Assembly (NCBI RefSeq): GCF_964244875.1
Contig: NZ_CAXTKA010000013.1
Location: 41,577 to 105,576, forward strand
From: an uncultured Devosia sp.
GTDB lineage: Bacteria; Pseudomonadota; Alphaproteobacteria; Rhizobiales; Devosiaceae
DNA: 64,000 bases
Reading direction: 5' to 3'
Below are positions 59,045-63,889 of this stretch, one piece after another. The notes beneath the pieces were generated by a model. It was given only the letters and a program-made list of their open reading frames with translations, was not told the DNA's origin and made no database searches. The stretch's first letter is position 1. The number at the start of each line of letters is the position of its first letter. The translations under genes were made by a program, and so were the position numbers.

Positions 59045-59791
59045 ATGGCCGGCCATTCACATGCCAAGAACATCATGCACCGCAAGGGCAAGAGCGACGC
59101 CGTGCGCTCCAAGGTCTTTTCCAAGCTGGCGCGCGAAATCACCGTTGCCGCCAAGCTGGGCATGCCCGATCCGGCCTTCAATTCGCGTCTGCGCCTGGCC
59201 GTCAACAATGCGCGTGCCCTGTCGATGCCGCGCGACAATATCGAGCGCGCCATCAAGAAGGCGATCGGCAATGACGGCGAAAATTACGAGGAAATCCGCT
59301 ACGAAGGCTATGGCCCCGGTGGCGTGGCCATTATCGTCGAGACCCTGACTGACAACCGCAACCGCACTGCGTCCAACGTGCGCTCGACCTTCTCCAAGAA
59401 TGGCGGCGCCATGGGCGAAACCAATTCGGTCGGCTTCATGTTCGACAAGATCGGGGAGATCGAATATGCGGGCAAGGCCGGCTCGGCCGACAAGATCATG
59501 GAAGCGGCGATCGAGGCGGGCGCCGACGATGTGGAAAGCGACGAGGACGGCCATTGGATCTATACCTCGTTCGAAGCCATGATCGAGGTATCGGCGGCGC
59601 TCGAAAAAGTGCTTGGGGAGGCCGAGTCGATCAAGGCGATCTGGAAGCCGCAGACCAATACGCCGATCGATGCGGAAAAGGGCGCGACGCTGATGAAGCT
59701 GATCGGCCTGCTCGAGGAAGACGATGACGTGCAGAACGTCTATTCCAACTTCGAGATGAGCGACGAGGACATGGCCAAGCTCGACGGCTAG
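59045..59791 (+). CDS. YebC/PmpR family protein
   Basis: [43 protein letters not shown]. Confidence 0.96.
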
Positions 59792-59797
59792 GTTCCG

Positions 59798-60580
59798 TCA
59801 GCCGGCCTGGCTCAGGGCGACCGGTGGATCGTCGGTGGCCTGGATGATGGCGACGCGGTTGCGGCCAGCCTGCTTGGCATTGTAGAGCCGCTGGTCGGCA
59901 ATGCGGAACAGTTCGGCGAAACTGGCGGTCCCCTCGAACACGGCACCGCCAATGCTCACCGAGAGCTGGCGTGGACGACCGTCAGGCGAGAATGCCGCCA
60001 GATTGACCGAACGGCGGATGCGCTCGGCAATGGTTTGGGCGCCGTGCTGGTCGACATTGGGCAGATAGACGCCGAATTCCTCGCCGCCCATGCGGCCGAC
60101 CAGTTCGCCAGGTCTCAGCACGGCGCGGATCGAGCGCGCGATGATGGTCAGCGCCTCGTCGCCCGCATCATGGCCGAACAGATCGTTGATGGCCTTGAAG
60201 TTGTCGGCGTCGATCATCAGCAGGGCGCCGTAAGGCGGGGGGTCGGTGCGGGCAAGCCGTGTCGTGACCTTGCCGGTGAAGGCGCCGCGATTGAGGCAGG
60301 CCGTCAGGCTATCGGTGCGCGCCACGAGGCCCAGACGCAGATTGCTGATCGCCAGGCCCCGGACCCGCATGCTCATGTAAAAGAACAGCGGCATGCCCAA
60401 AAGGACCGGCAGCACGGTGGCGCTGACGATGGAGCGATGTACGGCGCTGGGGCCCAGGCCATCAAAGAACACGGCGTTGAACGCCACTGATACCGCAACG
60501 CAGCCCAGGGTTCCGAGCAGGGTCCAGCGCACGACGCTCGACCAGCTCTGCAAGGCACGGACCAGTCTGGAAGCGGCCAT
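59798..60580 (-). CDS. Membrane-anchored diguanylate cyclase
   Basis: Two TM helices, DADNFKAINDLFGH..GD, intact GGEEF. Confidence 0.92.
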   Translation of the reverse strand: MAASRLVRALQSWSSVVRWTLLGTLGCVAVSVAFNAVFFDGLGPSAVHRSIVSATVLPVLLGMPLFFYMSMRVRGLAISNLRLGLVARTDSLTACLNRGAFTGKVTTRLARTDPPPYGALLMIDADNFKAINDLFGHDAGDEALTIIARSIRAVLRPGELVGRMGGEEFGVYLPNVDQHGAQTIAERIRRSVNLAAFSPDGRPRQLSVSIGGAVFEGTASFAELFRIADQRLYNAKQAGRNRVAIIQATDDPPVALSQAG

Positions 60581-60926
60581 GGACACTCTTTCTGCTCAAC
60601 GCAATCAATGCGTGCGGATATGGGTGGCCAATCAAATCGGCCGATCGATGTGTCGGCGGGCTGGCCTGATCGTTTCGCTGGCGTTTGGCCGTCAGGAGAT
60701 CAGCCGCCAGTTGCGATGCAGCGGTTGCATCTGGCTGGAATAACGCAACGAGGCGTGTGTGCTGGCAGCGGGGGGCCCGCGAAGCGTGCAGGCAGGCAAT
60801 CGGCTGGCGCTCTGGATCATCGCGGTTCTTTCGTGCATTCCCGAGCGTGACACTAGGCAGGGGTGTTGAAGATGGTATTGGCGAGATTGCCGCGATTTTA
60901 TTGATCCCCGGTTTTCCACCGCCGGT

Positions 60927-60941
60927 GTTTCTGCTTTGTTC
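60927..60941 (+). promoter_or_regulatory. Putative alphaproteobacterial LexA (SOS) box upstream of ruvC
   Basis: GTTT-CTGCTTT-GTTC, one mismatch to GTTC-N7-GTTC, 45 bp before the ruvC start. Confidence 0.55.
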
Positions 60942-60985
60942 ACTTTGGGCTTGGTAGGGTGACGCGGGGTAGCTAAAGGTGGGTC

Positions 60986-61492
60986 ATGAACAAGGCTGTG
61001 CGAATCATCGGCATCGATCCAGGCCTGCGCCGTTGCGGCTGGGGCATCATCGCCTCCGAGGGCAGCCGGCTGGCTTTTGTCGCCTGCGGCACGATAACGC
61101 CGCCGGTCGATGGGTCTTTGGCGGATCGGCTGGCAGTGCTGTATTCGGCGTTGACGCAGGTGCTGGAGCGACACGCGCCCGACGAGGCGGCAGTCGAGGA
61201 AACCTTCGTCAATGCCGGTGCGCGGTCGGCGCTGCTGCTGGGGCAGGCGCGCGGCGTGGCGCTGATGACGCCGGCGGCGCATGGCTTGCCGGTGGCCGAA
61301 TATGCCGCCAATCTGGTCAAGAAATCGGTGGTGGGCACCGGCCATGCCGAAAAGGGGCAGGTTGGATTGATGGTCAAGCTGCTGCTGCCCGCGGCCGATG
61401 TCAAAGGCGCCGATGAAGCCGATGCGCTGGCTATCGCCATCTGCCATGCCCATCATCGTGTCGCGGCGCAACGGCTCAAGGCCTCGGCATGA
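60986..61492 (+). CDS. ruvC: Holliday junction resolvase
   Basis: IGIDPGL...[37 protein letters not shown]. Confidence 0.97.
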
Positions 61493-62106
61493 TCGGCAAG
61501 CTCAAGGGCGTCGTCGACAGCTTTGCCGAGGACAGCGCGCTGATCGATGTCGGCGGCGTGTGCTACGAGGTGTTCTGCTCCTCGCGCACGCTGCAGGCGC
61601 TGCCGCGCGTGGGCGAGGCCAGCGTGGTGTTCATCGAAACCGTGGTGCGCGAAGACATGATCCGGCTTTATGGGTTTTCCAGCCAGGCCGAAAAGGCCTG
61701 GTTCACGCTGCTGATGACCGTGCAAGGTGTCGGCGCGCGCGTGGCTCTGGCAATCCTTTCGGCGCTGTCGCCTTCCGAGCTGTCGAGCGCCATCGCCTTG
61801 CAGGACAAGGCGATGATGGGGCGGGCCAATGGTGTGGGCCCCAAATTGGCAGTGCGGCTGGTGACCGAACTCAAGGGCAAGGTGCCGACGACGGGGGCAA
61901 TCGACGCGGGCGTGCTGGGGCTGCAATCGGCGCTGGGCGAGGGCTTGGCGTCGAGCAATATCACCGATGCCGTCTCCGCCCTGACCAATCTGGGCTATTC
62001 CAGCGCCCAGGCCTCGGCGGCCTTGGCGCGGATCGTCGCGCGCGAAGGGGATGGGACACCGACCGAAAAGCTGATCCGGCTGGGACTGCGAGAGCTGAGC
62101 AGTTGA
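61489..62106 (+). CDS. ruvA: Holliday junction branch migration protein A
   Basis: [40 protein letters not shown]. Confidence 0.97.
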
Positions 62107-62110
62107 CGCC

Positions 62111-62170
62111 TTGAAAAGCCCGCGATTCCTTACTACTGTGATATGTAAGGAACTCTCTGGAGGTAAGGAA
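62111..62170 (+). promoter_or_regulatory. Internal TA promoter and operator
   Basis: TTGAAA-N17-TACTGT; IR TTCCTTAC (62126)-N11-GTAAGGAA (62145) and a third GTAAGGAA at 62163. Confidence 0.7.
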
Positions 62171-62457
62171 TGAACGAGCATCTGCAAATATGTGCACGTT
62201 CGAAGATGACCAGCAAAGGCCAGACGACCGTGCCGCGCGAAATTCGCGACGCACTCGGCTTGGCGGAGGGCGTGCAAATCGAATGGGTCGTCAATCAGGC
62301 CGACGGAACGGCGACGATAAAGCCTAGAACACTGCGCGCCGTTGATCTGGCCGGTTTTCTTGGGCCATCTCCTGTAGGGCCGGTAAGCATCGAGCAGATG
62401 AATGAGGGTATCGCAGAGGCGGTGGCGGAGCGCTTTGCGCGAGCTGTGAAGCGATGA
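62170..62457 (+). CDS. AbrB/MazE/SpoVT antitoxin (VapB-like)
   Basis: KMTSKGQTTVPREIRDALGLAEG. Confidence 0.92.
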   Translation: MNEHLQICARSKMTSKGQTTVPREIRDALGLAEGVQIEWVVNQADGTATIKPRTLRAVDLAGFLGPSPVGPVSIEQMNEGIAEAVAERFARAVKR

Positions 62458-62852
62458 TCGGTGTCGACACCAACGTTCTGGTGCGACTTGTTGTTGAAGA
62501 AAATTTTGAGCAAACAGCCTTGGCGATAAGCTTTTTTGATGCACGATCACCGGCTAGCCCTGCGCATATATCCTTGATCGTGATTGCCGAATTGGCGTGG
62601 GTACTCGGCAAAACTTACAAATTTGGCTATGACCGCGTAGCGGCCTTTATAGAGCGGCTCCTTGAAACATCAGACATTGTCGTCGAACGCAGCGACATCG
62701 TGAAATGGGCTCTGGACCAGTTCAATCATGCCAAGATCGATTTTGCCGATTTGCTCATTGCTGAGATCAATCGCCAGGCCGAGTGCGAAGCAACGGTGAC
62801 CTTCGATCGAAATGCCGCCAAGCGTATATCCGGAATGGATCTGCTCGCGTGA
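62454..62852 (+). CDS. PIN-domain toxin (VapC-like)
   Basis: [28 protein letters not shown] acidic catalytic set. Confidence 0.92.
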
Positions 62853-63889
62853 CCCTTACCTCCCCTGCTGCCGGTCGCGACGATCCGCTCGATGTCTCCC
62901 TGCGCCCCACCGGGTTTTCCGAATTCGTCGGGCAGGCGGCGGCGCGGGCCAATCTGGAAGTATTCATCGAGGCGGCCAAAAGGCGTGGCGCAGCGCTGGA
63001 TCACGTGTTGTTCGTGGGGCCGCCCGGGCTGGGCAAGACCACGCTGGCGCAGATCATTTCGCGCGAACTGGGCGTTGGCTTTCGCGCCACGTCCGGCCCG
63101 GTAATCGCTAAGGCGGGGGATCTGGCGGCGCTGCTGACCAATCTGGAAGACCGCGATGTGCTGTTCATCGACGAGATCCACCGGCTCAATCCGGCGATCG
63201 AGGAAATCCTTTATCCGGCAATGGAGGATTACCAGCTCGACCTGATCATCGGGGAGGGGCCGGCCGCCCGTTCGGTGCGGATCGATCTGGCCAAGTTCAC
63301 CCTGGTCGGCGCAACGACGCGCGCGGGCCTTTTGACCACGCCGCTGCGCGACCGTTTCGGCATTCCCGTGCGGCTCAATTTCTACACGCCCGAAGAGCTG
63401 GTGCAGATCGTGACGCGCGGGGCGCGGCTCCTGGGCATGCCGATGGCGCCCGACGGGGCCATGGAGATCGCCCGGCGCTCGCGCGGCACGCCGCGCATTG
63501 CCGGCCGGCTGCTGCGGCGGGTAACCGATTTTGCCTTGGTCGACGGTTCGGGCGAGATCACCCGCGCCATCGCCGACAAGGCGCTGCTGCGGCTCGATGT
63601 CGATGCGCGCGGGCTGGACCAGCTCGACCGGCGGTATCTCACCACCATCGCCGAGTTCTATGGCGGCGGCCCGGTCGGCATCGAAACCATCGCCGCGGCG
63701 CTGAGCGAGCCGCGCGATGCGATCGAGGAGATCGTCGAGCCTTACCTGCTCCAGCAAGGCTTCATCCAGCGCACCTCGCGCGGCCGGATGCTGACCGGGG
63801 CGGCGTTCCAGCATCTTGGCCGGGCCGTGCCCCAAGGCTTTGTCGGCATGCAGGCAAGCCTGTTCGAGGGGCCGGAGGCGGAGGAGTGA
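62849..63889 (+). CDS. ruvB: Holliday junction branch migration helicase B
   Basis: [39 protein letters not shown]; GTG start overlapping the PIN stop (GTGA). Confidence 0.98.

Follow-up and report, generated by a model that had tools for sequence, protein, structure and literature searches.

The ruvCAB genes of an uncultured Devosia sp. (genome 3.66 Mb) are interrupted by a VapBC toxin-antitoxin (TA) cassette, which appears to have been seamlessly inserted at the ruvA|ruvB junction and there probably provides ruvB with both a repressed promoter and translational coupling. The genes lie in the 64,000-nt stretch of DNA analysed here, hereafter the window, and the arrangement was first reported in an original prediction made from these letters. 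That arrangement was confirmed: the open reading frame (ORF) listing, together with Pfam and NCBIfam searches, placed ruvC, ruvA, an AbrB-type antitoxin, a PIN-domain toxin and ruvB in one co-directional string in the predicted order, with a promoter and a triple operator before the antitoxin gene (Table 1). All of the junctions from ruvC to the ybgC-like frame are 4-nt overlaps, with the sole exception of that between ruvA and the antitoxin gene, which are separated by a 63-nt spacer. No terminator-like sites were found between ruvA and ruvB, and the ORF listing of the window contained no integrase or transposase near the cassette.

The model that we favour is of a self-contained type II TA cassette of about 745 bp, with its own promoter, operator, antitoxin and PIN toxin, that would have entered the ruvA|ruvB junction of a ruvC-ruvA-ruvB-ybgC string. 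Transcription of ruvB would then come both from read-through from the ruvC promoter, which probably bears a weak LexA operator, and from the cassette promoter, the latter being repressed through its palindrome by the antitoxin or the TA complex. As the Shine-Dalgarno (SD) sequence of ruvB is itself weak, most ruvB translation would fall to ribosomes that have finished the toxin frame and then re-initiate at the ruvB GTG.

Table 1. Features of the ruvC-ybgC region, with SOS boxes found on other contigs. Positions refer to the window unless a contig is named.
Feature	Position	Strand	Remarks
LexA-box-like direct repeat GTTTCTGCTTTGTTC (GTTT-N7-GTTC)	60927-60941	+	about 59 nt before ruvC ATG; one mismatch from GTTC-N7-GTTC
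CTTGGTAGGGT motif	60950-60960	+	conserved in all Devosia loci
ruvC	60986-61492	+	PF02075, E = 2.7e-44; TIGR00228
ruvA	61489-62106	+	TIGR00084, 187 bits; start overlaps ruvC stop via ATGA (61489-61492)
Cassette promoter	62110-62138	+	-35 CTTGAA (62110-62115), 17-nt spacer, -10 CTACTG (62133-62138)
GANTC site (GATTC)	62124-62128		overlaps operator
Palindromic operator TTCCTTAC-N11-GTAAGGAA	62126-62152		spans -10 and likely transcription start
Operator copy 1, TTCCTTAC	62126-62133		inverted
Operator copy 2, GTAAGGAA	62145-62152		direct
Antitoxin SD GGAGG	62159-62163	+	
Operator copy 3, GTAAGGAA	62163-62170	+	direct; reaches antitoxin ATG
Antitoxin (AbrB/MazE/SpoVT-type, VapB-like), 95 aa	62170-62457	+	PF04014, 32.8 bits against a cut-off of 24.7
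Antitoxin/toxin overlap ATGA	62454-62457	+	4 nt
Toxin (PIN domain, VapC-like), 132 aa	62454-62852	+	PF01850, 39.5 bits against a cut-off of 23.6
Toxin stop/ruvB start overlap GTGA	62849-62852	+	toxin stop overlaps ruvB GTG
ruvB	62849-63889	+	NF000868, 504 bits; sole copy in genome
ybgC-like thioesterase frame	GTG at 63886	+	overlaps ruvB stop TGA (63886-63889)
SOS box, recA	C11:118842-118867		
SOS box, recN	C19:8910		
SOS boxes, lexA	C5:101682-101721		
SOS boxes, ssb	C12:57657-57978		

The overlap of the toxin stop with the ruvB start, as seen in the window, recurs in the form ATGA, GTGA or TTGA at 52 of 55 loci (50 of 53 distinct toxins), across four named families and two separate toxin clades. 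At the other three, additional DNA follows the toxin gene. Both edges of the cassette are strikingly exact, the 5′ edge being the -35 element (0-5 nt past the ruvA stop) and the 3′ edge the toxin stop. Moreover, in four Devosia genomes in which the toxin has been replaced (G006, G033, G010 and G015) a remnant of the toxin gene, its final 20-25 nt (...GGAATGGACCTGCTCGCGTGA), has been left in front of ruvB. The original prediction had found no clear ribosome-binding site for ruvB, and this held: there is only a GGA 9 nt upstream of the GTG, with a predicted SD/anti-SD duplex (16S tail) of -4.1 kcal/mol. The mean duplex is -4.2 kcal/mol at the 52 cassette junctions compared with -6.7 kcal/mol at 14 empty junctions, where ruvA abuts ruvB directly (Mann-Whitney p = 1.6e-6 overall and 6e-5 within Devosia). 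At these empty junctions the ruvA TGA likewise overlaps the ruvB start (NTGA) and a GGGAG lies 8 nt upstream inside ruvA, suggesting that the ancestral state was ruvA-ruvB coupling, since displaced by the cassette.

The position of the ruvB start is supported by some relatives in which the codon aligned with GTG 62849 is the sole in-frame start. A longer ruvB beginning at GTG 62783 was rejected, as the frame is closed or has no start codon in several relatives. We also considered a 10-nt perfect complementarity, 685 nt apart, between GGAGGTAAGG (62159-62168, comprising the antitoxin SD and part of the third operator copy) and CCTTACCTCC (62854-62863, within ruvB codons 2-5), but this pairing is unconserved and was treated as chance. 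The ACCTCC of ruvB, an anti-SD-like string, is found in most relatives.

The second component of the model is the promoter and operator within the spacer. Counted on both strands, the genome contains just 20 copies of the element GTAAGGAA, against 49 expected; the spacer is the only site in the genome with at least two copies within 60 nt, and its palindrome is the only genomic instance of CCTTAC-N4-16-GTAAGG. These features are therefore not due to chance. The pattern CCTTG...TTCCTTAC-TA-N8-10-GTAAGGA(A)...SD...ATG is kept in essentially all ruv-linked loci. Nearly all relatives place the CCTTG of the -35 element 0-5 nt after the ruvA stop and have CTA following the left operator arm, and several also have the third operator copy at the start codon. 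Promoters of rhizobia follow the consensus CTTGAC-N17-CTATAT, which the cassette promoter resembles, and the promoter call rests on this resemblance and on conservation. A CCTTAC/GTAAGG palindrome, often with a further GTAAGG by the start codon, also precedes homologous pairs that are not linked to ruv genes in distant phyla, and thus the palindrome is likely to be the family's own operator that arrived with the cassette. Autorepression is expected to act through this palindrome, by analogy with other VapB antitoxins of the AbrB type. Since the operator lies inside the ruvC-to-ruvB transcription unit, one may further speculate that the bound complex could impede read-through from upstream. The half-site GTAAGG/CCTTAC is kept before AbrB-PIN pairs of Gammaproteobacteria, Acidobacteriota, Calditrichota, Bacteroidota and others, a conservation that is unusually deep for a TA operator. 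A GANTC site proposed for the methyltransferase CcrM is indeed present and overlaps the operator, but a role for CcrM (or CcrM/GcrA control of the promoter) found no support, as only about 4 of the 14 Devosia cassette promoters retain the G-A before TTCC.

On these comparisons (the overlap, the weaker SD and the conserved operator), there is good support for translational coupling of RuvB to the toxin and for ruvB having an additional promoter under autorepression. There are, nonetheless, several observations which count against such a reading. The TGA of the overlap is encoded by ruvB codons 1-2 (NTG-ACC/AGC) whatever lies upstream, so that some of the overlap needs no cassette to explain it. 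Common descent links the loci, and both the counts and the Mann-Whitney test therefore make them look more independent than they are. Cassettes of a second VapBC type (TA2; G019, G031 and G036) have a good ruvB SD of -7.2 to -7.8 kcal/mol. No stable or conserved RNA structure masking the ruvB start was detected (minimum free energy z = +1.9 relative to shuffled sequences, with an empty alifold consensus over 50 loci), and so independent initiation at ruvB is possible. Finally, a strict scan for sigma-70 promoters of the E. coli type between 60500 and 64000 gave no match, the consensus used being that of E. coli.

Some of these points would suit a different explanation, namely that the cassette is a neutral or selfish passenger in a permissive junction, that ruvB uses its own weak site and that the overlap is historical and without regulatory consequence. 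The TGA intrinsic to the ruvB start is in keeping with this. However, a mere passenger does not readily account for a seamless 3′ edge at almost every locus of two toxin clades, for the toxin-gene remnants that persist before ruvB once the toxin itself has been replaced, or for an SD that is weaker than at empty junctions. We consider this explanation doubtful, though it deserves serious attention, and return to it below.

The identity of the pair was examined at the levels of domain, residue and fold. In addition to the PIN and AbrB domains and the ATGA overlap, toxin residues D5, E46, D99 and D118 are invariant in 13 homologues of 35-50% identity and correspond to the acidic tetrad of PIN domains. 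The AlphaFold2 model of the toxin has a predicted local distance difference test score (pLDDT) of 92, and a Foldseek search against the PDB returned M. tuberculosis VapC20 and VapBC, together with VapC15, as best matches, although identity to solved VapCs is only 16-23%. A search of the toxin profile against PDB sequences found no VapC, the best match being PcrIIC1 (8WMM), which suggests a toxin subfamily without a closely related solved structure. The antitoxin gave nothing significant against PDB sequences, and neither protein had a match in PADLOC. The antitoxin start was assigned to 62170, with its GGAGG and an N-terminal extension (MNE...) common to relatives, in preference to an ATG at 62206, which was rejected. 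The toxin gene is single-copy in the genome. Judged by sequence and model, the pair is a bona fide VapBC-type type II TA module, as the original prediction had suggested, with the PIN toxin a predicted ribonuclease. It resembles two VapBC modules with AbrB-type antitoxins, Rickettsia felis VapBC2 (PDB 3ZVK) and M. tuberculosis VapC20 (5WZ4), in gene order, the 4-nt overlap of antitoxin and toxin, the PIN fold, the four acidic residues and a palindromic promoter operator. What sets the Devosia module apart is that the stop of its toxin is joined to a housekeeping-gene start.

Toxin homologues were found in 14 of 36 Devosia genomes and in all 14 lie between ruvA and ruvB. A wider scan with the toxin alignment, taking one genome per species, retained 80 loci, 41 of which have ruvA upstream and ruvB downstream. 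The genera with ruv-linked copies are Devosia, Rhizobium, Allorhizobium, Neorhizobium, Mesorhizobium, Allomesorhizobium, Aliihoeflea, Kumtagia, Oceaniradius and Roseitalea. No such linkage is seen in Gammaproteobacteria, Acidobacteriota, Bacteroidota and other phyla, whose homologues do not adjoin ruv genes. When 201 genomes were sampled evenly across the order, five of the 22 best-scoring toxin matches were ruv-linked (G000, G009, G061, G223 and G160) and these belong to two GTDB family codes only (f1 and f27). On the toxin tree, 50 of 53 ruv-linked toxins fall into one group (Shimodaira-Hasegawa approximate likelihood ratio test, SH-aLRT, 80), with the TA2 toxins of Devosia forming a separate, well-supported clade, and the ruv-linked label changes twice compared with 32.7 times for shuffled labels. 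By comparison across genomes, the cassette lineage is a long-standing resident of the ruvA|ruvB slot of the Devosiaceae and of the Rhizobiaceae in a broad sense.

The slot is not reserved for this lineage. In other families of the order unrelated genes lie between ruvA and ruvB, and the junction thus appears to be a general insertion point, which would also be expected if the cassette were a passenger. From their translations, we take the inserts at loci L135-L143 to be multi-pass membrane, GNAT-like, Uma2-like nuclease, LysE-like exporter, DksA/TraR-like and L,D-transpeptidase-like proteins. Moreover, a second, different AbrB-PIN pair was found between ruvC and ruvA in 10 of 41 Rhizobiaceae-type loci. 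This pair (MRVTEKGQVTIPK... plus ...LIDTNVLID...APDTHP) gives the order ruvC-TA-ruvA-TA-ruvB and occurs in Rhizobiaceae and Phyllobacteriaceae (L060, L062, L067, L069, L086, L102, L106, L111, L120 and L122, with a decayed copy in L089); its stop overlaps the ruvA ATG in L067, L086 and L089.

Within Devosia the content of the slot is highly variable. Among the 36 genomes it is empty in 14, holds the present cassette type (TA1) in 11 and TA2 in three, and otherwise carries a signal-peptide protein of about 107 aa (4/36), a 163-aa multi-pass membrane protein (2/36) or a 114-aa ORF, once with an added 168-aa ORF (2/36). On a DNA tree of concatenated ruvC, ruvA and ruvB these states change 19 times, compared with 19.0 times for shuffled labels, and hence show no phylogenetic signal. 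Well-supported sisters differ, G005 carrying TA1 where G027 is empty and G019 carrying TA2 where G003 has the membrane protein. Toxin and antitoxin are 34-64% identical between genomes whose RuvB proteins are 88-97% identical. A closer inspection of G027 revealed that its empty junction (...GCGTTTGACC) matches that of the non-sister G029 and is not a scar of the cassette of G005, suggesting that alleles are exchanged through the conserved flanks. In G003 (locus L023) a perfect 17-nt repeat, GGAGTTGAGTAGTTGAG, at 2103-2119 and 2599-2615 duplicates the ruvA-stop/ruvB-start junction and flanks the gene of the 163-aa protein. The loci at which the 107-aa secreted protein or the 114-aa ORF, with or without the 168-aa ORF, stands in place of a TA pair include L041, L046, L029 and L034 (G006, G033, G010 and G015, respectively). 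None of the alternative cargoes had a Pfam or PADLOC match.

From these distributions the cassette appears to behave as exchangeable cargo, rather than belonging permanently to the repair pathway. The original prediction had held that the module would be hard to lose, and had proposed the adjacency of ruvA and ruvB in relatives as a check. The direct adjoining of the two genes in the 14 empty genomes, and a number of slot changes no lower than that of shuffled labels, contradict it. The free turnover and the unrelated cargoes are also what would be expected of the neutral passenger considered above. A further possibility is that the slot is a hotspot for anti-phage or conflict functions, flanked by core genes, in which small defence or addiction genes are swapped by recombination through the ruvA and ruvB flanks. 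The absence of phylogenetic signal fits this well, as do the divergence of toxin and antitoxin relative to RuvB, the empty-junction alleles common to non-sisters and the lack of a nearby integrase or transposase. However, PADLOC recognised neither the pair nor the other cargoes, and such a role is in any case compatible with the coupling model; as an account of the cassette we hold it to be improbable. As a tentative combination of these ideas, the ruvCAB junctions of Devosiaceae and Rhizobiaceae might conceivably be dedicated, integrase-free cargo slots, with seamless cassettes passing between species by recombination through the conserved ruv flanks. The resident VapBC lineage would have adapted by taking over the promoter and translation start of ruvB; RuvB could then be made only if the toxin frame is translated, and would be held 'hostage' at the level of translation and not of protein stability.

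Lastly, we considered the regulation of the string from upstream of ruvC. The LexA box that had been claimed there is present with one mismatch, and its position is conserved: GTT[T/G]-N7-GTTC occurs at about -59 of ruvC in 30 of 30 Devosia loci examined and precedes ruvC at most loci checked in the Rhizobiaceae and Phyllobacteriaceae, three families in all. Elsewhere in the genome, GTTC-N7-GTTC with a T-rich spacer precedes lexA (two copies), ssb (three), an imuA-like gene, radA and rmuC, whilst recA has a triple repeat (GTGC-N7-GTTC-N7-GTTT) and recN has GTTG-N7-GTTC. On a matrix built from 16 genomic LexA boxes, themselves scoring 20-34, the ruvC site reaches 7.5 bits; about 318 genomic sites score as well, and the matrix alone fails to single it out. 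In Caulobacter, ruvC is a late SOS gene (PMC12700426), and LexA sites have been predicted in alphaproteobacterial ruvCAB promoters (PMC3323433). Given its conserved position, LexA control of ruvC is likely. The CTTGGTAGGGT motif that follows may possibly be an extended -10 element (TGnTAnnnT) of the ruvC promoter. As the cassette's own promoter has no LexA box, any SOS effect on the TA pair would have to come via read-through, and SOS co-induction of the pair is plausible. A yebC-like gene (59045-59791) lies upstream of ruvC, as in many bacteria, but the two are separated by an oppositely oriented gene for a GGDEF diguanylate cyclase (59798-60586).

The conserved site before ruvC, the SOS induction of ruvC in Caulobacter and the predicted alphaproteobacterial sites would all be in keeping with the DNA-damage checkpoint put forward in the original prediction, under which a ruvB-anchored, SOS co-induced toxin pauses growth during repair. 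Yet 14 of the 36 Devosia genomes have no insert and eight have unrelated cargo, sister species differ, the same TA family and operator occur away from ruv genes in many phyla, and the cassette promoter carries no LexA box. RuvABC evidently functions without need of the module, since the slot can be empty or filled with unrelated cargo, with sisters differing. Nothing that we found supports a checkpoint as such and, with the repair pathway doing without the module in many Devosia, we regard it as very unlikely.

Comparison with known systems places the seamless, coupled cassette in context. In Rhizobium leguminosarum bv. viciae 3841, RL3987 and RL3988 are vapB and vapC (PMC11406972) and RL3986 is ruvC (10.1101/2020.05.07.082560). 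Like the Devosia pair, these genes encode an AbrB-type antitoxin and a PIN toxin inside a Rhizobiales ruvCAB string. By gene numbering, however, they lie between ruvC and ruvA, where the Devosia pair lies between ruvA and ruvB, and with 87 and 133 aa they match the second, ruvC-ruvA pair of the Rhizobiaceae, as judged by size and position only. Transposon insertions in vapB, vapC, ruvA and ruvB of strain 3841 fell into the same phenotype class (PMC11406972), which fits operon membership, co-transcription and polarity. This passing mention of the neighbourhood is the only published mention that we found of such a ruv-embedded pair. In the Vibrionaceae, SOS-controlled ruvCAB operons are disrupted by inserted genes (PMC3323433). 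As in Devosia, these are foreign genes between ruv genes, but they belong to a different clade, are not described as TA pairs and have no reported seamless coupling.

A transcript shared with a stress or repair gene would not be peculiar to the Devosia cassette. The relA-mazEF and dinB-yafNO operons of E. coli, and higBA of Caulobacter, are cases of TA pairs co-transcribed with housekeeping or SOS genes. Caulobacter higBA has been described as an SOS gene (PMC13384398). In these cases the pair is found at the end of the operon or beside it, whereas in Devosia it sits mid-operon and, unlike the others, carries the translation-start context of a downstream gene of an essential pathway. As a module the element is of an ordinary kind; its configuration is notable, conserved and largely undescribed.

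It is usual to regard TA pairs as accessory genes that stand on their own. The present lineage has long resided inside a core DNA-repair operon, where the cassette gives ruvB its promoter-proximal and translation-start context in dozens of species, and yet within a single genus the contents of the slot change at the pace of a defence hotspot. Sister species whose slots hold TA1, TA2, other cargo or nothing at all offer a clean natural system in which to study how cassettes enter and leave operons without breaking them. If the coupling is true, the supply of RuvB would depend on the regulatory state of a TA module, and this may bear on how rhizobia handle DNA damage and oxidative bursts during root colonisation.

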